Shown: one piece after another, positions 1,241-10,420 of the stretch | How positions within the stretch are numbered: position 1 is the first letter of the stretch | Layout: each line of letters begins with the position of its first letter | Assembly (NCBI GenBank): GCA_041498975.1 | Contig: JBGQJI010000087.1 | Span: 1-10,420, forward strand | Reading direction: 5' to 3' | Source: Candidatus Methylomirabilis sp. | GTDB taxonomy: Bacteria; Methylomirabilota; Methylomirabilia; Methylomirabilales; Methylomirabilaceae | DNA: 10,420 nt | Made by a program: the position numbers and the translations under genes | Notes under the pieces: generated by a model | What the model was told of the DNA's origin: nothing | Database searches by the model: none | The model's input: only the letters and a program-made list of their open reading frames with translations

Positions 1241-1690
1241 ATGCGAGTTTCCACCAAAGGCGATTACGCAACGCGGGCGATGCAGGATCTCGCCTTCCAC
1301 TATGATCAAGGGCCGATTCAGATCGAGGACATCGCGAAGCGACAACATCTTCCCGTGCGGTATCTGGAACAGATCCTCTTGAGCCTGAAACGGGCGGGCT
1401 TCCTTGAAAGCAAGCGGGGGGTGAATGGGGGCTACTACCTCGCCAAGCATCCTCGGGAGATCACCGTCGGGGCCATCATCAGGACCATGGAGGGCCCGAT
1501 CATCCCTATCTTCTGTGTCGGCAGCGGGAAGCGGGAGATCTGTATCGAAGAGCCGCTCTGCAGCCTGCGGGATATCTGGAACGAAGTCCGCGATGCTGTG
1601 GTGAGGATTGTGGACCATACCACTCTCGAAGATCTGTGTCGGCAGATCAGAGTGAAGCGAGAACGGCAGGAGTTGACGTACCAGATCTAA
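1241..1690 (+). CDS. Rrf2-family transcriptional regulator (CymR/IscR-like)
   Basis: Motifs MRVSTKGDYATRAM, YLEQILLSLKRAGFLESKRGVNGGYYLAK and ITVGAIIRTMEGP. Cys triad C-x8-C-x5-C. AAGGA RBS upstream. Confidence 0.95.
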   Translation: MRVSTKGDYATRAMQDLAFHYDQGPIQIEDIAKRQHLPVRYLEQILLSLKRAGFLESKRGVNGGYYLAKHPREITVGAIIRTMEGPIIPIFCVGSGKREICIEEPLCSLRDIWNEVRDAVVRIVDHTTLEDLCRQIRVKRERQELTYQI

Positions 1691-1792
1691 TCCCGTTCCA
1701 ACTATTTACACCACAATGGAGGCTAGGGACAGCGAGAGTTCTTGGTAGGGCTTATGTTGGCGATTAGCCGCACTCAGTTGGAACGGGACTAG
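1687..1792. mobile_element. MITE-like element / long terminal inverted repeat pair in the rrf2-cysK intergenic region
   Basis: CTAATCCCGTTCCAACT (1687-1703) and AGTTGGAACGGGACTAG (1776-1792) are reverse complements at 16/17 positions, with a perfect 13-bp core. The 72-bp interior is non-coding. Flanks are CTAA/CTAG. Confidence 0.55.
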
Positions 1793-1822
1793 CCCTTTTA
1801 GGGGCAAAAGGTATAGAGACCG

Positions 1823-2737
1823 ATGCCACGCTTGGTTCGAAACGCGCTCGAATTGATCGGCGATACCCCATTGGTGGAGTTGCAGCGGATTCCGCGGCGA
1901 GGCTCCGCCCGTATTCTTGGAAAGCTGGAGTCTCTGAATCCAGGGGGAAGCGTCAAAGATCGGATCGCCCTGGCAATGATCGAAGAGGCGGAGCGTAACG
2001 GGCGCCTGAAGCCGGGCGACACGATCGTCGAGCCGACCTCAGGGAACACCGGGATCGGCCTTGCGATGGTGGCGGCGATCAAAGGGTACCGGTTGATCCT
2101 GACGATGCCGGAAGACATGAGCCTGGAGCGCCGGACGCTGGTCGGTCGGTTCGGGGCCGAGCTGGTGCTCACTCCAGCAATCGAAGGGATGACTGGCGCG
2201 GTCTACGCGGCCCAGTCGCTGGTGGAAAAGCATCCCGATTACTTCATGCCTCAGCAGTTCCTGAACCCGGCCAACCCCGAGATCCACCGGCTGACCACAG
2301 CCAGGGAGATCCTCAAAGCGACTCAGGGGCAGATCGATGCGTTTGTGGCCGGCGTCGGGACCGGCGGGACCATCACGGGGGTAGGCGAGGTGTTGAAGAA
2401 AGAAGTTCCCGGCGTCCAGGTGATCGCAGTGGAACCAGCCAAGTCTCCCGTCTTACAGGGAGGCAGGGCCAGGCCCCACGGGATTCAGGGAATCGGCGCC
2501 AGCTTCGTCCCGGGAGTCCTGAACAGGGAGATGCTTGACGAGATCATCGCAGTCGAGGACGAGGATGCCTATCGGATGGCCGCTCGCCTGGCCAAAGAAG
2601 AAGGCCTCCTGGTGGGAATATCGGCGGGAGGAAACGTTGTTGCCTCGACGTTGGTGGCGGAACGGCTTGGAGCCGGGAAAGTCGTGGTCACAATCCTCCC
2701 CGACACGGGCGAGCGATACCTGACCGTCCCATTCTGA
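1823..2737 (+). CDS. cysK: Cysteine synthase A (O-acetylserine sulfhydrylase)
   Basis: Motifs LIGDTPLVEL, KLESLNPGGSVKDRIA (PLP lysine), EPTSGNTGIGLA, QQFLNPANPEIH, GVGTGGT, HGIQGIGASFVP and DTGERYL. Confidence 0.95.
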   Translation: MPRLVRNALELIGDTPLVELQRIPRRGSARILGKLESLNPGGSVKDRIALAMIEEAERNGRLKPGDTIVEPTSGNTGIGLAMVAAIKGYRLILTMPEDMSLERRTLVGRFGAELVLTPAIEGMTGAVYAAQSLVEKHPDYFMPQQFLNPANPEIHRLTTAREILKATQGQIDAFVAGVGTGGTITGVGEVLKKEVPGVQVIAVEPAKSPVLQGGRARPHGIQGIGASFVPGVLNREMLDEIIAVEDEDAYRMAARLAKEEGLLVGISAGGNVVASTLVAERLGAGKVVVTILPDTGERYLTVPF

Positions 2738-2819
2738 TTCGCGCGGGAGCCAGAGCATGAACGCCTATCGTGGTCTAGATTCTTTGAGGGGAGGGGAGCC
2801 AACGGGGGGTGAGGTGTCG

Positions 2820-3905
2820 ATGGCGATCCGTGTCTATATTCCGACTCCGTATCGGAAGCTGACCCGGAATCAGCCCGTCGTCGAGGGGCATGGGGACGAT
2901 CTGGTGGAACTCCTGGACGACCTGGAGAGGCGCTTTCCGGGCATCCGCGGCCATGTGCTCGACGAGGGTGGTGAGATTCACCGCCACCTAAACGTCTACG
3001 TGAACAGTGTGGCGCTGGAGGAGCTTGGAGGCAAGCGAACGCCACTGAAGGATGGTGACGAGGTGGCGGTGATCCCGGCCATGGCGGGCGGGGCCGTGCC
3101 CTTCAATGAAGAGCAGATCCGCCGCTACAGCCGGCATATCATCCTCCCCGAGGTGGGGGGCAAAGGTCAGCGCAAACTATTGAACAGTTCGATCCTCCTG
3201 GTCGGGGCAGGCGGCCTCGGCTCCCCTGCGGCCCTGTACCTCGCCGCCGCGGGTGTCGGTCGTCTCGGCATCATCGACGCCGATGTCGTGGACATGAGCA
3301 ATTTGCAACGCCAGATCCTCCACCACGTGGATGATGTGGGACGACCGAAGGTCCAGTCTGCGGTGGATTCGATCGGCCAGATCAACCCCGACGTGAAGGT
3401 TGAGCCGTTTCAGGCGATCCTCTCCTCGGAAAACGCCAAGGACATCATCGGCCAGTACGACCTTGTGGTCAACGGCTGTGACAACTTCCCGACCCGGTAC
3501 CTGGTCAACGACGTCTGTGTCTTTCTGAAGAAGCCGCTGGTAGACGGAAGTATCTTCAAGTTCGAAGGACAGGTGACGGTTTTTGTCCCTGGTCAGGGCT
3601 GCTACCGCTGCCTGTACCCTTCCCCTCCGCCTCCCGGACTTGTCCCGAGTTGTCAGGAGGCCGGCGTCCTGGGAGTGCTGTGCGGCATCGTCGGGAGCCT
3701 GCAAGCCATCGAGGCGATCAAGCTTCTGCTCGGGATCGGCGAGTCCCTGGCCGGGCGTCTGCTCTTCGTGGATGCATTTGGGATGGAGTTCCGGCAGGTC
3801 AAGGTGCGCCGCGACCCCGACTGCCCGGTGTGCGGAGACCGTCCGACCATCACCGATCCGATCGACTACTACGAATTCTGCGGGGTGCCTGCCACGGGTC
3901 ACTGA
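2820..3905 (+). CDS. moeB: Fusion of a CysO/MoaD/ThiS-like ubiquitin-fold sulfur carrier (aa 1-91, ending AMAGG) and a MoeB/ThiF-family E1 adenylyltransferase
   Basis: GAGGTG RBS before ATG 2820. Ubl: VYIPTPYRKLT...HLNVYVN...LKDGDEVAVIPAMAGG. E1: RYSRHIILPEVG, GAGGLGSP, SNLQRQILH, DNFPTRY, CYRC, CQEAGVLG and CPVC. No stop codon between the domains and no C-terminal rhodanese domain. Confidence 0.93.
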   Translation: MAIRVYIPTPYRKLTRNQPVVEGHGDDLVELLDDLERRFPGIRGHVLDEGGEIHRHLNVYVNSVALEELGGKRTPLKDGDEVAVIPAMAGGAVPFNEEQIRRYSRHIILPEVGGKGQRKLLNSSILLVGAGGLGSPAALYLAAAGVGRLGIIDADVVDMSNLQRQILHHVDDVGRPKVQSAVDSIGQINPDVKVEPFQAILSSENAKDIIGQYDLVVNGCDNFPTRYLVNDVCVFLKKPLVDGSIFKFEGQVTVFVPGQGCYRCLYPSPPPPGLVPSCQEAGVLGVLCGIVGSLQAIEAIKLLLGIGESLAGRLLFVDAFGMEFRQVKVRRDPDCPVCGDRPTITDPIDYYEFCGVPATGH

Positions 3906-3923
3906 AGGGAAAGGAACGACGCG

Positions 3924-4940
3924 GTGCTTCGAACGGTTGTCCTCGGAATGGTCGTTGGCGTGGCCTTCGGATACGCGCTTCAACGCGGCCGCTTCTGCAT
4001 GAACTCCACATTCCGCGATATCCTGGTGGCGCGGGACCTCACACTTCTCCGCGCGTACATCCTGGCCCTCCTGATCCAGATGGTCGGGGTCAGGGCGATG
4101 TCGGCATTGGGGTGGTTTGAGTTGGGCGTCACCCCCTTTTTCTGGGAGGCTACCCTGTTGGGCGGCTTCGTGTTCGGCCTGGGCATGGCCTTCTCGGGCG
4201 GGTGAGCGAGCGGCAGCACTTACCGGTCCGGTGAGGGGATGGTGGGATCGATCATCGCGTTGCTCGGGTTTGCGTTCGGAATCACCATGACGAGCGGTGG
4301 TGTGCTCGAGCCGGTCCAGACCGCCCTCCGGAGCTGGGTGGTCGAGATCGATGGGGAGTCGGCGACCCTGGATCGGCTCTTTGGAGTGAGCCCATGGCTC
4401 CTGGTCGCGGTGAGTGTGGCGGCCGGCGGATGGTGGTTGTGGAACAGCCCGGCAGGCGGATACCAGAAGGGGTGGAGCTGGACGAGAAGTGGGATCGCGA
4501 TCGGGCTGATCGCCACGTTCGCCTGGCCCATCTCGGCGCTCACCGGCAGGGATTACGGTCTCTCGATCACCGAGGGGATCCGGACGATTTTCGGGCTCCT
4601 GTTCACAGGCGAGGTCGATCTACTGACCTGGGGCAGCTTCATGTGGCTGGGGATCATCCCCGGTGCCTACCTGGCGGCGCGGTCGCACGGGGAATTCGCT
4701 TGGCGCGCGCCCGGCGCGCAGCGCCTCCTCCAGGCCCTCGGGGGCGGTCTCCTGATGGGGGTGGGGGCCGGGATCGCCGGGGGATGCAATATCGGGCATG
4801 GCCTGACTGGGGTCCCGCTCTTTGGCTTAAGCAGCCTGACGGCCACATTCAGCATCGTCCTGGGGGTCTGGACCGGAGCATATATCCTCTTCGGGAGCGT
4901 CGCTTTTGAGCGGAGGGTCAGAAGTGTCCAACGCGCGTAG
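3924..4940 (+). CDS. yeeE: YeeE/YedE (TsuA-like) thiosulfate/sulfur-compound transporter, predicted selenoprotein (UGA 4203-4205 = Sec94; 338 aa)
   Basis: Track ORFs 3924..4205 and 4239..4940 are in the same frame. Readthrough gives FGLGMAFSGG-U-ASGSTYRSGEG, matching the family GGCASG motif. The other conserved Cys motifs, RGRFC (C25) and AGGCNIGH (C288), are intact. Multiple TM helices; SECIS-like hairpin downstream of the UGA. Confidence 0.88.
4219..4235 (+). promoter_or_regulatory. Putative bacterial SECIS element
   Basis: CTTACC-GGTCC-GGTGAG hairpin (6-7 bp stem with one G-U pair). The GGUC-containing apical loop begins about 20 nt after the in-frame UGA. Confidence 0.75.
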
Positions 4941-5835
4941 GATCGGAATCTCTTTCATCGCGACGTGTGTCGTCTGTTGGGTCGGGGCAGTTCAGCCGGC
5001 CCTTGGAACGACGGTTGGCGGCTACGCGAACCCGCAGCTTTTGATCGAGACAGAGGAGTTGGCCAAGCTGGTTGACGAGCCGGCATTGCGGATTGTAGAC
5101 CTTCGAACACCGGAAGAGTATGCCGAGGGCCATATCCCGGGCGCGGTGCATCTGCGCTGGCAGGCCCTGGATGACCTCAAGGCGAATCAGGAGGGTCTCC
5201 CGATCCCCAAGGCTCTGGCAGAGGAGCTGTTCAGCGGAGTGGGGATCGGGGACACGACGAGGGTCGTTGCGTACGATGGTCCGAAGACCCCCTTTGGCGC
5301 CACCCGCCTCTTCTTTGTCCTGGAGTTCTTCGGCCATGACAAGGTCCGGGTGTTAAACGGCGGCTTCAAGAAGTGGGCGCAGGAAGGTCGCCCGGCCTCT
5401 ACCGAGGCGCCGGCGCCGGCCAAGGCCGCCTTCGTCGCTCGACCACGCCCAGAGCTGCTGGCCACCTCGCAGGAGGTGCGCGCGAGACTCGGCGACCCGA
5501 AGGTGTGCCTCCTGGATGCTCGATCGGCGAAGGAGTACACCGGGGAGGATCTCCGGGCCATGCGGGGTGGGAGGATTCCCGGGGCGGTCAATGTGGACTA
5601 CCTCAATACCATGCGGAGTGAGGACCAGACGTTCAAGAGCGTCGAGGAGTTGCGAAAGCTCTTTGAGTCCGCAGGGGTCACGCCGGACCGGGAGACGATC
5701 ACGTACTGCCACACGGGCGCCAGGGCGGCTCACGACTACTTCGTGCTGCGACTCCTGGGATACCAGAAGCTCAAGAACTACGATGGCTCATGGGCCGAAT
5801 GGGGTAACTCCGAGGGGCTGCCGATCGAGGAGTGA
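4924..5835 (+). CDS. Two-domain rhodanese / thiosulfate sulfurtransferase (SseA/TST-like) with probable signal peptide
   Basis: GGAGG RBS then GTG 4924 (alternative start 4906). N-terminus MSNARRIGISFIATCVVCWVGAVQPALG. Motifs YAEGHIPGAV, VRVLNGG, LLDARS, GGRIPGAVN, active-site loop YCHTGARA and YDGSWAEW. Overlaps the yeeE stop by 17 nt. Confidence 0.92.
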   Translation: MSNARRIGISFIATCVVCWVGAVQPALGTTVGGYANPQLLIETEELAKLVDEPALRIVDLRTPEEYAEGHIPGAVHLRWQALDDLKANQEGLPIPKALAEELFSGVGIGDTTRVVAYDGPKTPFGATRLFFVLEFFGHDKVRVLNGGFKKWAQEGRPASTEAPAPAKAAFVARPRPELLATSQEVRARLGDPKVCLLDARSAKEYTGEDLRAMRGGRIPGAVNVDYLNTMRSEDQTFKSVEELRKLFESAGVTPDRETITYCHTGARAAHDYFVLRLLGYQKLKNYDGSWAEWGNSEGLPIEE

Positions 5836-5848
5836 TGGGGGAGAATGG

Positions 5849-6076
5849 ATGGCGCAGTATTCGCTCGACGTGACCGGGGAGATTTGCCCCTATCCTTTGA
5901 TCATGACCAGGAAAGAGTTGGGGAAGCTGCAGCCGGGTGATCAACTGGTCGTGACAGTCGATTACGCAAAATCGGCGGAGGACATCCCCAGGTGGGCGAA
6001 GGAGGATGGCCACACCGTCCTGGCGGTTCGCGAGATGGGCGGGACACAGTGGGAAATCCTGCTGGAAAAGGGGTAA
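5849..6076 (+). CDS. TusA/SirA-family sulfur carrier (YeeD/TsuB-like), CPYP motif
   Basis: ATG 5849 after GGGGAG. Sequence MAQYSLDVTGEICPYPLIMTRKELGKLQPGDQLVVTVD...DIPRWAKEDGH, 75 aa. The track's 5516 start is an over-extension. Confidence 0.92.
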   Translation: MAQYSLDVTGEICPYPLIMTRKELGKLQPGDQLVVTVDYAKSAEDIPRWAKEDGHTVLAVREMGGTQWEILLEKG

Positions 6077-6134
6077 CCCTGATCTCCTGGGGCTGGCAGG
6101 CTGGCCGGCGCCGTCTTGAGCCGGGCGAGGTGTC

Positions 6135-7106
6135 GTGATCGCGTTGAATCCGCCACGGATGGTGTTGATGGCCCTGGCGCTTCTTGCAGGAGGCGCTGCT
6201 GCACAGGCGGAGGCGGCCGGTCGCGTCTACACGGCCAACATGGAGTCCGGCACCGTCTCCGTCATCGATGCCGACGCGATGAAGGTCGTGCTCACGATCG
6301 ATGCCAGGGGACATCACACCGACGACCTTTTCTTGTCGGCTGATCAGTCCAAGCTGTTCGCGACCAACATGCACAGCGGGACCCTGGCGGTCGTGGACAC
6401 CGCTACCGATCAGGTGATCGCCACGATCCCGACGGGGAAGAAGGCTCACTCCATTGCCCTCACTCAGGATGGCAAGCACGTCTGGGTGGTCAACGGGGGA
6501 GAGGAGTATTTGACCGTTGTGGATGTTGCCTCGCTCAGGATCGTCGGACGGGTCTTTCTGGGCCAGATCCTCGGCCCGGGATATGTCCGATTTAACCCCG
6601 AGGGAACACGGGCGTATATGACGAGCCCGATCCTCGGCACTGTTTCCGTGATCGACGTGGCCTCGAAGAAGGTGATCGCGACGGTGGAGGTCGGGAAGAG
6701 TCCGACCTTCATCGCCGTGACGTCCGATGGGCGGCGAATCTGGGGCGCCGATACCGGCGGCGACGAGATTTTTGCCCTCGATGGCTCGAACAATAGCCTG
6801 CTGGGGAAGCTGACAGTAGGGAAGGCTCCGAACCATCTCGCCCTCGTTGGCGACAGCCTCTATGTGACAGTGGGAGGGACGAACGAAGTGGCGATGGTGG
6901 GCGACGTGGGCGGCCAGGTGAGCGTGAGGGGGCGGATCAAGGTCGGCGGGAGGCCCCGTGGAATCAGGCCCAGCCCGGACGGGAAGCGCCTGTATGTCAC
7001 CAGTGAAGATACGAACGATCTGCACGTGATCGACATTGCGGCACAGAGGATAGTGGGGACGGTCCCGGTGGGCAGGAGGCCCGTCGCCGTCGTGACGGCG
7101 AGATAG
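6135..7106 (+). CDS. Secreted YVTN/YncE-family seven-bladed beta-propeller protein
   Basis: GAGGTG RBS. Signal peptide ...MVLMALALLAGGAAAQAEA. Seven repeats of the type RVYTANMESGTVSVID / RLYVTSEDTNDLHVID, several linked by VGxxP-type turns. Confidence 0.9.
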   Translation: MIALNPPRMVLMALALLAGGAAAQAEAAGRVYTANMESGTVSVIDADAMKVVLTIDARGHHTDDLFLSADQSKLFATNMHSGTLAVVDTATDQVIATIPTGKKAHSIALTQDGKHVWVVNGGEEYLTVVDVASLRIVGRVFLGQILGPGYVRFNPEGTRAYMTSPILGTVSVIDVASKKVIATVEVGKSPTFIAVTSDGRRIWGADTGGDEIFALDGSNNSLLGKLTVGKAPNHLALVGDSLYVTVGGTNEVAMVGDVGGQVSVRGRIKVGGRPRGIRPSPDGKRLYVTSEDTNDLHVIDIAAQRIVGTVPVGRRPVAVVTAR

Positions 7107-7133
7107 ATCGACCGTCGCTTTGGAGGAAGTCGG

Positions 7134-7379
7134 ATGAGCGAGCGCCATCAGCAGGTGGCCGAATCCCTCGATTTGAAGGGTGAGGTCTGCCCCTACACCT
7201 TTGTCAAGAGCAAGCTGGCGCTGGAGGAGATGGAAAGCGGCCAGGTGCTGAGAGTGATCGTAGATAACCGAGGCTCGGCCGAAAACGTCCCTAGAAGCTT
7301 GACCAGTGAGGGGCACCAGATCCTGGACGTGTCACAATTGAACGAAACGGACTGGGCGATCACGGTGAAAAAGGCCTGA
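7134..7379 (+). CDS. Second TusA/SirA-family sulfur carrier, CPYT motif
   Basis: GGAGGA RBS. Sequence SLDLKGEVCPYTFVKSKLALEEMESGQVLRVIVD...ENVPRSLTSEGH, 81 aa. Confidence 0.92.
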   Translation: MSERHQQVAESLDLKGEVCPYTFVKSKLALEEMESGQVLRVIVDNRGSAENVPRSLTSEGHQILDVSQLNETDWAITVKKA

Positions 7380-7501
7380 TGCGCGCAGCGTCAGCCGTTG
7401 AATCACTCTCGGCAGCAGGCAAGATGGGGGAAGACGGAACTTCGGGCAGCCTGACGGGTTGAAGCGACCCGGGCACGGGACTGACGACAAAGGGGACATG
7501 G

Positions 7502-8437
7502 ATGAAATCAGCCGATATTCTCGATGCCATCGGTAAGACGCCGCTGGTGGAGCTTACGCGGATCAGTCCCAAGAAAGGGGTCAGGATCTTCGCCAAGATG
7601 GAGGGAAACAACCCCACCGGGAGCCTGAAGGATCGGATCGCGAAGTACATGATCGAGCAGGCTGAACGGAGCGGCGAGCTGACGAAGGACAAGACGATCT
7701 TGGAGCCGACAAGCGGCAACACCGGCATCGCCCTGGCCATGATCGGGCGAAGGAAAGGGTATAAGGTCAAGGTCGTGATCCCGGAGAACGCCACACCGGA
7801 GCGGCGCCAACTCCTGGAGATCTTCGGCGCCGAGATGATCTACTCTGATGGGACGAAAGGGAGCAACGGCGCCATCGAGCTGGCTCAGAGGCTGGTCGCC
7901 CAGGATGCATCCCTCTACATGCCATACCAGTACGGCAATCCCGCCAACCCCCTCGCCCACTATGAGACGACCGGTGTGGAGATCTTGAACGACCTGCCGG
8001 AAATCGACGTCTTCGTGGCCGGCCTTGGCACAGGCGGAACCCTGATGGGTGTGGGCCGACGGCTGAAAGAAGTCAATCCCAAGACCAAGGTCATCGCTGT
8101 CGAGCCTCATCCCGGCGATCTGGTCCAGGGGCTTCGCAGCCTGGAAGAAGGTTTCATTCCGCCCATCCTCGACACAAGCCTGCTGGACGGAAAGATCATG
8201 GTTGACTCCCGCTGCGCCTTTGCCGCCACCCGGGACCTGACCAATAAGGAAGGGATCTTCGCAGGGGTCTCCTCGGGGGCTGTGGTTCATGTCGCCATCC
8301 GGATGGCGCACCGGCTGGAGGAGGGAAACATCGTCGTCATCCTCTGTGATGGCGGATGGAAGTACGTGAGCCTTGGCGTATGGCACAAGGAGTTTCCGGA
8401 GCTCGGTGAAAATATGTACAGCCATCTCTGGTGGTAG
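7502..8437 (+). CDS. cysM: CysM-type PLP-dependent cysteine synthase (probably sulfur-carrier-dependent O-phosphoserine sulfhydrylase)
   Basis: Motifs NNPTGSLKDRIA, EPTSGNTGI, YQYGNPANPLAHYETTG, GLGTGGTLMG, GLRSLEEGFIP and DGGWKY, with C-terminal HLWW. These resemble actinobacterial CysM. Neighbours are a CysO-like carrier, an E1 and Mec. Confidence 0.88.
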   Translation: MKSADILDAIGKTPLVELTRISPKKGVRIFAKMEGNNPTGSLKDRIAKYMIEQAERSGELTKDKTILEPTSGNTGIALAMIGRRKGYKVKVVIPENATPERRQLLEIFGAEMIYSDGTKGSNGAIELAQRLVAQDASLYMPYQYGNPANPLAHYETTGVEILNDLPEIDVFVAGLGTGGTLMGVGRRLKEVNPKTKVIAVEPHPGDLVQGLRSLEEGFIPPILDTSLLDGKIMVDSRCAFAATRDLTNKEGIFAGVSSGAVVHVAIRMAHRLEEGNIVVILCDGGWKYVSLGVWHKEFPELGENMYSHLWW

Positions 8438-8438
8438 G

Positions 8439-8915
8439 ATGGACCTTACTCAGGACGCCTTGAAAGAGATCTTCGCCCACGCCGAGGAGGGCTACCCCGA
8501 CGAAGTCTGCGGGATCGTGCTCGGGAAGGGGAGCGATCCGAACACGCATCTGGTCCGCCGATGCGCCAATCTCGCGAACCAGCATCATCAGGAAGATCCG
8601 GTTCGCTTTCCCAGAGATGCCAGGACCGCGTATGTCATGGACCCTCAGGACCTTCTGCGCATCCAGCGCGAAGCCGATACCAAGGGGCTTGACTTCCTTG
8701 TCATCTATCATTCCCACACGGATCATGAGGCATACTTCTCCAAGACCGACAAAGAGCTGGCGCTGTTCGATGGGGAGCCGATGTGGCCTCATGCGCGGTA
8801 CATGGTGATTTCTGTCAAGGACCATAATGTATCTTATTATAAGGTATTTAGATGGGATTCTCTACTAAACGACTTTATAGATGAGCCGTCCTCCGTTTTG
8901 AAGGCAAGCCGGTAG
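8439..8915 (+). CDS. mec: JAMM/MPN+ (M67) metalloprotease, Mec-like CysO-cysteine peptidase
   Basis: ATG 8439 lies one base after the cysM stop. Motifs HAEEGYPDEVCG and YHSHTDHEAYFSKTD (E...HxH-x7-S-x2-D). 158 aa. Confidence 0.92.
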   Translation: MDLTQDALKEIFAHAEEGYPDEVCGIVLGKGSDPNTHLVRRCANLANQHHQEDPVRFPRDARTAYVMDPQDLLRIQREADTKGLDFLVIYHSHTDHEAYFSKTDKELALFDGEPMWPHARYMVISVKDHNVSYYKVFRWDSLLNDFIDEPSSVLKASR

Positions 8916-9012
8916 CCTCTTTTTGGCCCGCGGTTCTTGATGGTTTCAATCGACGTACTCGCACATGTAGACGTTGACGACTGACCGGAGGAATGTGCCA
9001 CCAGCGAAGGGA

Positions 9013-10420
9013 ATGGCGGTGAGCGACCCACGGTTGGACGAAACCAAGGCGCAAAGGATTGAGCGCCTGAAGAAGGAAAAGAACCCGTGGGAGTGCTTCG
9101 ACGAAATCCGCCGCTTCGCCCGAGAGGGGTTTCAAGCGATTCCGGCAGAATGGCTGGCCAGCTACCTCCGGTGGTGGGGGGTGTATACGCAGGGGGACGG
9201 GATCGGCGCGGTTGGAGGGAAGGGGGGGGAGGGAAAATCCACGCCGTACTTCATGGTGCGCATCCGCATCCCGAATGGGTTTCTGCTTGCCCATCAACTG
9301 CGTACCATTGCTGACCTTGCCGCACAGCACGCCCGCGGCGTCGCCGACCTCAGCGTCCGGCAGAACATCCAACTGCACTGGGTCACGATCGAGGACCTGC
9401 CCGAGCTTCTTGAGTCTCTCTGGAGATGCGGAATCACGACGATGGGTTCGTGCGGCGACGATACGCGGAACATCACCGGCTGCCCGCTTGCCGGTGTGGA
9501 CGGTGATGAACTCGTCGATGCCTCGCCCCTGGTCCATGCGGCGACTCGCCTGTTGAACGGGAACGCGGAGTTTTATAACCTGCCGCGCAAGTACAAGATC
9601 TGCATCAGTGGTTGCCGCGCCTGGTGTGCCTACCCCGAGATCAATGACATCGGAATGACCGCCGTCGGGCATCCGAAGTCCGGCGAGATCGGGTTCTCAG
9701 TGCGGGTCGGCGGGGGACTTTCCACGCAGCCTCACCTGGGCGTTCGGCTGAATGTCTTTGTGCGCTGGGACCAGGTGCTGCCGGTCGTGAAAGGTATCAC
9801 GGAAACCTTCCGCGATTCAGACATCTTGCGCCAGGATAGGGAAAAGGCGCGGATGAAATTCCTGTTCCTCACCCATGGGTGGACCGCCGAACGATTTCAG
9901 AAGGAGGTGGAACGCCGCACCGGCTTTTTCCTCGACCCGGCCGTGCCGGAAGAGCCGCCGGACGATGTCTACCGCGACCACGTCGGCGTTCACCCGCAGA
10001 AGCAGCACGGGTATTACTATGCGGGCGTTCCCGTCCTTCGCGGGCGGATGACCGCCGAGCAGATGCAGGGGATGGCGGGTCTTGCCGATCGCTATGGCAG
10101 CGGCGAGCTGCGCATCACCGTTATGCAGAACCTGGTGATCCCGAACATCCGGCAGTCGCACATACAGGCGCTCAAAGAGGAGATCAACCAGACAGGTCTG
10201 CGACTCGAGGCGTCACCCTTCTGGCGAGGCACGATCGCCTGCACGGGGACGGAATTCTGCAAGCTCGCCTTGACGGAGACCAAAGGGTTTGCCGGATGGC
10301 TGGTGGAAGAGCTCGAGCGACGGATGCCGGGCTTCGACCAGCACGTCAAGATCCACGTCACCGGCTGTCCGAATAGCTGCGGGCAGCAGTGGATCGCCGA
10401 CATCGGGATCGAGGGGAAGA
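9013..10420 (+). CDS. Ferredoxin-dependent sulfite/nitrite reductase (siroheme-[4Fe-4S] hemoprotein, Sir/NirA family), 3'-truncated
   Basis: Missing from the ORF track because it runs off the window. Frame reads LRWWGVYTQ, FMVRIRIPNG, RQNIQLHW, SCGDDTRNITGCP, NLPRKYK, IACTGTEFCKLA and HVTGCPNSCGQ. Start is uncertain (GTG 8995, ATG 9013 or GTG 9019). Sulfite specificity is inferred from context. Confidence 0.93.
   Translation, partial: MAVSDPRLDETKAQRIERLKKEKNPWECFDEIRRFAREGFQAIPAEWLASYLRWWGVYTQGDGIGAVGGKGGEGKSTPYFMVRIRIPNGFLLAHQLRTIADLAAQHARGVADLSVRQNIQLHWVTIEDLPELLESLWRCGITTMGSCGDDTRNITGCPLAGVDGDELVDASPLVHAATRLLNGNAEFYNLPRKYKICISGCRAWCAYPEINDIGMTAVGHPKSGEIGFSVRVGGGLSTQPHLGVRLNVFVRWDQVLPVVKGITETFRDSDILRQDREKARMKFLFLTHGWTAERFQKEVERRTGFFLDPAVPEEPPDDVYRDHVGVHPQKQHGYYYAGVPVLRGRMTAEQMQGMAGLADRYGSGELRITVMQNLVIPNIRQSHIQALKEEINQTGLRLEASPFWRGTIACTGTEFCKLALTETKGFAGWLVEELERRMPGFDQHVKIHVTGCPNSCGQQWIADIGIEGK

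Follow-up and report, generated by a model that had tools for sequence, protein, structure and literature searches.

A candidate SECIS hairpin behind the in-frame UGA of a predicted selenoprotein form of the YeeE/TsuA thiosulfate transporter

The transporter gene, its UGA and the adjacent hairpin

The stretch of DNA analysed here (the window) is 10,420 nucleotides (nt) long and comes from Candidatus Methylomirabilis sp. (contig JBGQJI010000087.1 of assembly GCA_041498975.1). It carries a gene for a thiosulfate transporter of the YeeE/TsuA type with an in-frame TGA codon and, within the coding sequence shortly after this codon, a small hairpin (Table 1). Translation table 11 splits the gene into two separate open reading frames (ORFs), 3924–4205 (93 amino acids, aa) and 4239–4940 (233 aa), while reading the TGA as selenocysteine (Sec, or U) gives one protein of 338 aa. 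We think it highly likely, at roughly 90%, that the transporter occurs here as a selenoprotein and that the hairpin is its bacterial selenocysteine insertion sequence (bSECIS).

The 338 aa protein matches PF04143 (Sulf_transp) along the entire profile (positions 1–310 of 310; E 1.1e-78, 265 bits against a cut-off of 27). The best match among the NCBIfam models is the TsuA model NF052577, with 252 bits and thus below its cut-off of 400, and NF041049 gives 212 bits against 645; because the equivalog cut-offs are not reached, the protein can be placed in the PF04143 family but not assigned as an exact equivalog of TsuA. Residues 7–324 align with YeeE of Spirochaeta thermophila (StYeeE, 6leo; E 1.2e-50), with U94 opposite C91 of 6leo within the motif GGC-ASG-x-TYR-x-GEG. 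The protein thus resembles the YeeE/TsuA proteins of S. thermophila and E. coli (6LEO/6LEP; PMC7449682) over its full length, including three cysteine (Cys) positions of the substrate pathway: C25, U94 and the Cys of AGGCNIGH lie opposite C22, C91 and C293 of StYeeE, which line its thiosulfate pathway according to PMC7449682, where C91 (C94 in E. coli) is described as essential and not replaceable by Ala or Ser. The presence of TusA/YeeD-like genes further downstream in the window recalls the pairing of YeeE/TsuA with its partner YeeD/TsuB (PMC11073785). Unlike these systems, the central Cys is replaced here by a predicted Sec, and yeeE is separated from the first TusA gene by one for a two-domain rhodanese. 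Among named relatives, those nearest to the window's yeeE (79–91% protein identity) come from metagenome-assembled genomes labelled Candidatus Methylomirabilis or Methylomirabilota. Two antisense ORFs (3980–4219 and 4220–4543) were set aside, as they lie inside the well-supported plus-strand gene.

The stem of the hairpin begins 13 nt 3′ of the UGA and can be drawn either with 7 base pairs (bp) and a GUC loop or with 6 bp and a GGUCC loop (4225–4229), which places the apical loop 20 or 19 nt from the UGA, respectively. Its local energy is −8.5 kcal/mol. An earlier sequence-only reading of this DNA had described the stem, and a GGUC loop about 20 nt after the UGA, correctly and at the right coordinates; it had also proposed folding the region with RNAfold, which returns the hairpin both in the minimum free energy (MFE) structure and in the centroid structure. 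An intrinsic transcription terminator was ruled out, the hairpin being followed by GGGGAUGGUGGGAUCG, without a run of U.

The features expected of a bSECIS are summarised in PMC13188914 after the consensus of Zhang & Gladyshev 2005, with the E. coli fdhF element as prototype: a loop of 3–9 nt, an upper stem of 4–16 bp, a G in the first two loop positions, a spacing of 16–37 nt between UGA and loop, and an MFE of at most −7.5 kcal/mol. The window hairpin has a loop of 3 or 5 nt that starts with G-U or G-G-U, a stem of 7 or 6 bp and a spacing of 20 or 19 nt, all within these ranges, and its energy lies past the threshold by only a small margin. Its location is likewise that of a bSECIS: it lies within the coding sequence, immediately 3′ of an in-frame UGA whose counterpart in homologs is a Cys codon.

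The prototype itself offers a direct comparison. The UGA is codon 140 of fdhF in the E. coli MG1655 sequence, and GCA-GGUC-UGC comes after it, its loop lying 18 nt from the UGA; this confirms the statement of the sequence-only reading that the fdhF loop contains GGUC. The window hairpin is similar to the fdhF SECIS in lying in the coding region 3′ of the UGA, in its small, G-first apical loop with GGUC at the apex, and in the distance of this loop from the UGA (19–20 nt compared to 18 nt), its upper stem being 6–7 bp long. The sequence of its stem is unrelated, however, and the bulged U that the fdhF SECIS has is not evident.

Transporters of this kind with Sec are not themselves new. Sec-containing YeeE/YedE appears in PMC13188914 as a predicted selenoprotein family (PF04143, motif GUxSG, example WP_012471001.1), with reference to Zhang & Gladyshev 2008 and Peng et al. 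2016, and the same family is listed in PMC9312934. Since the window motif G-U-A-S-G fits GUxSG, with Sec at the conserved Cys, the hairpin would be the SECIS that one expects in a predicted selenoprotein family already on record, the likeness being one of motif. Unlike the listed proteins, the one in the window comes from a Candidatus Methylomirabilis-type genome, and a member in such a genome is what appears to be new here: as judged by titles and the openings of abstracts, none of the papers listed for Methylomirabilis and selenocysteine appears to concern this gene.

The genome that harbours the window (2.68 Mb in 241 contigs, 84.9% complete, 62% G+C) possesses the SelA, SelB, SelD and tRNA-Sec required of a host that inserts Sec. 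Full-length selB (378 bits), selA (595 bits) and selD (399 bits) all score above the curated cut-offs, and a tRNA-Sec with anticodon tca, found by aragorn, lies on the same contig as selB. The selD gene (L008, G000:C199) has an in-frame TGA of its own, in the context HGAG-U-ACK, followed 33 nt downstream by GGCCCAG-GUC-CUGGGUC, with the same G-GUC-C apex as in the yeeE hairpin. In-frame TGA codons are also seen in two rhodanese-type genes of the genome (L079, G000:C195; L080, G000:C41), one of which exceeds the cut-off of NF041203 (rhodanese_LYCAU) with the context LYCA-U-S. Of two genome-wide scans for a UGA followed by a hairpin, one gave 57 hairpin matches, which fell on 53 distinct sites, and the other gave 130 candidates. 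Both were rejected as too noisy, owing to same-frame neighbouring genes and antisense frames; only the matches to selD and rhodanese_LYCAU were kept.

Taken at face value, these features suggest how the gene would be decoded. A ribosome arriving at UGA 4203–4205 would meet SelB and Sec-tRNA(Sec) tethered by the apex of the hairpin, that is by the GGUC loop on its stem of 6–7 bp. Sec would be delivered in competition with release factor 2, and translation would then proceed through the hairpin to give the 338 aa transporter, with Sec where the substrate pathway otherwise has its essential central Cys. Both the binding of SelB and the insertion of Sec at this codon are predicted from the features described above.

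Hairpin retention in TGA-bearing and Cys-bearing homologs

If the hairpin serves Sec insertion, it should be retained where the TGA is retained and be free to decay where the codon specifies Cys; the sequence-only reading had itself named this comparison as the one that could refute it. When 61 related genomes were searched in six frames, each of the 19 other genomes in the genus proved to carry the gene, and across 251 genomes of the phylum it turned up in 112. The best 30 loci (L012–L041), together with 37 further ones, provided 30 TGA forms and 37 Cys forms, to which 59 Cys forms from other phyla (Chloroflexota, Nitrospirota, archaea) were added for comparison. Raw MFE values of 30-nt windows were dropped as a discriminator, Cys forms in G+C-rich DNA folding nearly as well, and because they failed to discriminate we instead counted uninterrupted canonical pairs in the register of the window hairpin.

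The position of the TGA is invariant. Among the best 30 loci, all within the order, the codon is TGA in 21 and TGC or TGT in nine, always at the same place, and the nine same-genus orthologs with TGC or TGT align column for column with the TGA of the window. The 30 homologs with TGA on the essential-Cys codon span about 35–100% protein identity, and most have no other disruption.

Retention of the hairpin is confined to the TGA-bearing homologs of the phylum. Counting interrupted helices, it is kept at this position in all 30 TGA forms. At least 6 uninterrupted pairs are seen in 23 of the 30, compared to none of the 37 in-phylum Cys forms, for which the maximum is 5. Of the seven other TGA forms, four have 4–5 and three have 2–5 uninterrupted pairs, and in 30-nt folds all seven show the same helix, broken by one unpaired base. 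Two of these seven (L030 and L033) have GGG for GGT, and keep the GGUC loop by means of a register shift of one base. Within the loop, the third base of the Arg codon is G in 30/30 TGA forms, 16/37 in-phylum Cys forms and 20/59 out-of-phylum Cys forms. Leaving out the two TGA rows that come from unpublished genomes (L031 and L037, from G027 and G054) changes little, with at least 6 pairs in 22/28 and the loop G in 28/28. The pairing can also be counted by cell: in the alignment of TGA forms (A1) 86.7% of cells are paired, compared to 36–61% when the partners are slid by 1–3 columns, while the corresponding values for the Cys alignment (A2) are 57.3% and 36–55%.

The contrast is sharpest within the genus of the window, where at least 6 pairs are present in all nine TGA orthologs (6–7 pairs) and in none of the nine Cys orthologs (2–5 pairs), with local energies of −7.3 to −8.5 and −1.3 to −7.0 kcal/mol, respectively. 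These differences are synonymous. For instance, Thr is encoded by ACT in 9/9 TGA forms and by ACG, ACC or AGT in the Cys forms, which also have occasional GGC, TAT and GAA codons; all nine have lost pairs through such synonymous changes. The prediction that the hairpin is kept in TGA orthologs and degraded in Cys orthologs was thus borne out.

Because any stem within a coding sequence is shaped by the protein, we drew 5000 synonymous variants of the 17 codons that follow the UGA, with codon frequencies taken from the same genome. Only 25 of the 5000 attain 7 pairs in the register of the hairpin and 48 attain −8.5 kcal/mol, so that the hairpin is unusual once the encoded peptide is taken into account. 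Two codons at paired positions of the stem, ACT and GGT, are rare, making up 8% of Thr and 14% of Gly codons, respectively.

A similar picture emerges from a second Sec-bearing PF04143 subfamily in the same class (L051–L056, in G112, G205, G220, G228, G190 and G208), at 34–37% identity to the window protein. Its motif, KG-U-ATS-x-WSRVGTGS, is unlike the published GUxSG, and the hairpin GGUCCC-GGGUC-GGGACC begins 13 nt past its UGA, with spacing, stem length and a G-rich loop as in the window. Relative to the window stem, three pairs are altered on both sides and one on one side, and such covariation between subfamilies is good evidence for a structure.

Several observations nevertheless weigh against the SECIS interpretation. 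The fold is unexceptional in stability (dinucleotide-shuffle z = −0.29 for 58 nt and −0.82 for 101 nt), and in a genome of 62% G+C stability alone proves nothing. Much of the stem (UACC/GGUG) is dictated by the conserved residues Y-R-x-G-E, and since these tend towards UACC/GGUG, 5 of the 59 out-of-phylum Cys forms attain 6–7 pairs through codon choice alone. In 30-nt windows the Cys forms average about −9 kcal/mol, though in other structures. The same-genus comparisons are phylogenetically non-independent, the Cys forms all belonging to one sub-clade, and the double-sided covariation stems from a single deep split between the two subfamilies, for which reason it counts as one event and not six. 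Additionally, a scan of 3800–4700 against Rfam at E ≤ 10 gave no matches; to our knowledge Rfam holds no general bacterial SECIS model, hence this result is uninformative. Against these points, the SECIS interpretation is well supported by a UGA on an essential Cys, a full Sec machinery, the fit to the bSECIS model and retention specific to TGA forms.

Alternative roles for the UGA and the hairpin

The sequence-only reading went further than a SECIS, proposing that the hairpin might also gate re-initiation and that failed Sec insertion could be polar on the overlapping rhodanese gene, thereby linking selenium supply to downstream sulfur genes. Of its overall interpretation, the SECIS part stands and these further parts find no support. 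The arrangement that inspired them is real. GAGG (4233–4236) lies in the 3′ arm of the hairpin, 2 nt from an ATG (4239–4241) and 5 nt from a GTG (4242–4244), both in the frame of the TGA, and the letters are as the sequence-only reading gave them. The rhodanese gene likewise overlaps yeeE as claimed: its likely start, GTG 4924, sits behind GGAGG (4912–4916) and overlaps the end of yeeE by 17 nt, an arrangement typical of translational coupling. Termination at the UGA, some 730 nt upstream, would uncouple the rhodanese start and could expose the mRNA to Rho. A dual-function hairpin could thus be envisaged, in which failed insertion of Sec leads to re-initiation at ATG 4239 or GTG 4242 and to polarity on the rhodanese gene, coupling selenium to sulfur metabolism.

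We consider such a dual function quite improbable, as the putative start site shows no tie to the UGA and no constraint beyond the residues that it encodes. GAGG, ATG and GTG simply spell E-G-M-V, part of the conserved GEGMV motif. All nine same-genus Cys orthologs have identical letters here, and 54 of the 59 out-of-phylum Cys forms, archaea included, share the ATG. Conversely, the second Sec subfamily has AGC here in 6/6, without a start codon, and among first-subfamily TGA forms the Val codon is GTC or GTT in 6/24, such that the GTG is under no synonymous constraint. The 33 nt between TGA and ATG encode ASGSTYRSGEG, conserved at the protein level as far as the solved YeeE, which argues that they are translated and do not form a leader. 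A product starting at M106 would be without both C25 and U94, and a spacing of 2 nt between GAGG and ATG is too short for a Shine-Dalgarno site. Judging by titles and the openings of abstracts, none of the papers listed on this subject appears to treat a bacterial SECIS that gates re-initiation.

The proposed link to downstream sulfur genes does not hold among the Sec forms generally. The 17-nt overlap is seen in 6/6 complete loci of the window's sub-clade. In more distant Sec forms the rhodanese start as projected from the alignment falls 3′ of the yeeE stop, an approximate placement given only by alignment offsets and without a located yeeE stop for L032 and L038, and in the Cys-containing sub-clade, including its Sec forms L023 and L025, there is no rhodanese downstream of yeeE. 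With the overlap limited to the sub-clade of the window, regulation of sulfur genes by selenium is not a feature conserved across the Sec forms. Failed Sec insertion may nevertheless have ordinary polar effects. Within the window's own sub-clade one may go on to imagine the Sec-UGA as a selenium-dependent valve, where scarce Sec-tRNA would cause termination at codon 94, uncouple the rhodanese and lower the expression of rhodanese, TusA and CysM, an idea that we regard as unlikely.

Two other explanations concern the UGA itself. The codon might be read by a near-cognate tRNA (Trp or Cys), aided by the downstream structure and not involving Sec at all, since the identity of the inserted residue is not readable from sequence alone. 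This appears very improbable: the position needs a thiol or selenol, Ser and Ala failing there in the YeeE proteins of E. coli and S. thermophila as described in PMC7449682; the hairpin has the geometry of a SelB target and the GGUC apex found at the genome's own selD UGA and in E. coli fdhF; and decay of the hairpin coincides with loss of the TGA. That the TGA is a true stop, dividing the gene into ORFs of 93 and 233 aa with a hairpin that is an accident of the Y-R-S-G-E codons, would agree with ORF calling by table 11, with a stem core partly set by conserved residues and with the unremarkable fold z-scores, but is barely credible next to a TGA on the exact essential-Cys codon in 30 homologs, a conserved peptide between TGA and ATG, the Sec machinery of the genome, and a hairpin kept specifically in TGA forms and rare among synonymous recodings.

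Gene neighbourhood, evolution and significance

The gene lies within a single plus-strand sulfur-assimilation cluster extending from 1241 to 10419 of the window (Table 1). The N-terminus of the rhodanese (4924–5010, VSNARRIGISFIATCVVCWVGAVQPALG) resembles, by eye, an export signal with a twin-arginine, which suggests a periplasmic sulfurtransferase encoded beside the transporter. The ThiS–ThiF/MoeB gene is a single ORF and thus a carrier–activator fusion, located next to CysM and reminiscent of CysO-dependent cysteine synthesis. An antisense ORF of 471 aa (5901–7316, minus strand) matches no family, and the plus-strand beta-propeller gene that it overlaps has Pfam matches of its own; the ORF is most likely spurious, as open frames can be in G+C-rich DNA.

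Table 1. Positions of the UGA, the hairpin and the genes in the window
Feature	Position	Strand	Remarks
yeeE/tsuA-type thiosulfate transporter gene, TGA read as Sec	3924–4940	+	338 aa, U94; GTG start, TAG stop 4938–4940
Predicted in-frame Sec-UGA codon (U94)	4203–4205	+	Site of the essential central Cys (StYeeE C91, E. coli C94)
Candidate bSECIS hairpin	4219–4235	+	5′ arm CTTACCG 4219–4225, loop GTC 4226–4228, 3′ arm CGGTGAG 4229–4235
GAGG-GG-ATG-GTG	4233–4244	+	Codons for E-G-M-V of the conserved GEGMV motif; same letters in same-genus Cys orthologs
Two-domain rhodanese gene	4924–5835	+	Signal-peptide-like N-terminus; PF00581, two stretches, E 1.8e-40
Rrf2/CymR-like regulator	1241–1690	+	
CysK	1823–2737	+	
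ThiS–ThiF/MoeB fusion	2757–3905	+	ThiS/MoaD-like ubiquitin-fold residues 26–112, ThiF/MoeB adenylyltransferase 124–358
TusA-domain gene	~5861–6076	+	
YNCE-like beta-propeller	6135–7106	+	
Second TusA	7134–7379	+	
CysM	7502–8437	+	
Ferredoxin-type sulfite/nitrite reductase	8974 to window end	+	

In a quick maximum-likelihood tree of 40 proteins, with direction taken from outgroup rooting, every deep branch of the order includes Sec forms. The nine Cys forms of the genus all fall in one sub-clade (99 by the Shimodaira–Hasegawa-like approximate likelihood ratio test, SH-aLRT) together with the Sec forms L023 and L025, both of which keep the full hairpin. The whole tree needs at least four changes between Sec and Cys, and two are forced even by the well-supported branches alone. 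The tree is most simply read as ancestral Sec that was replaced by Cys more than once inside a single sub-clade, the SECIS decaying since. One further locus, L130, on a contig fragment from a record titled Patescibacteria group bacterium, encodes a YeeE protein 85% identical to that of the window; it is a Cys form of the Methylomirabilis type and looks mis-binned.

The Cys-containing sub-clade also differs in gene content. The rhodanese and beta-propeller genes (4941–5835 and 6070–7120) are absent from it, as seen by comparison with L016, L020, L023, L025 and L029, while the flanking TusA and CysM parts remain, and loss of the rhodanese and replacement of Sec by Cys thus fall in the same lineage. 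That the rhodanese-less sub-clade is the one repeatedly swapping Sec for Cys hints that Sec in YeeE may matter mainly alongside an exported rhodanese.

For the annotation of this gene, the analysis implies that the two table-11 ORFs of 93 and 233 aa be corrected to one predicted selenoprotein transporter of 338 aa. The yeeE loci offer a clean natural experiment on the evolution of SECIS elements, with a switch from Sec to Cys and subsequent loss of stem pairs within one genus, while TGA-bearing sisters retain the rare codons that maintain the stem. Sec would here occupy the central residue of a transporter's pathway and not a site in a redox enzyme, which would be of biochemical interest, and, if the Sec reading is true, the uptake of sulfur by this organism would depend on selenium.

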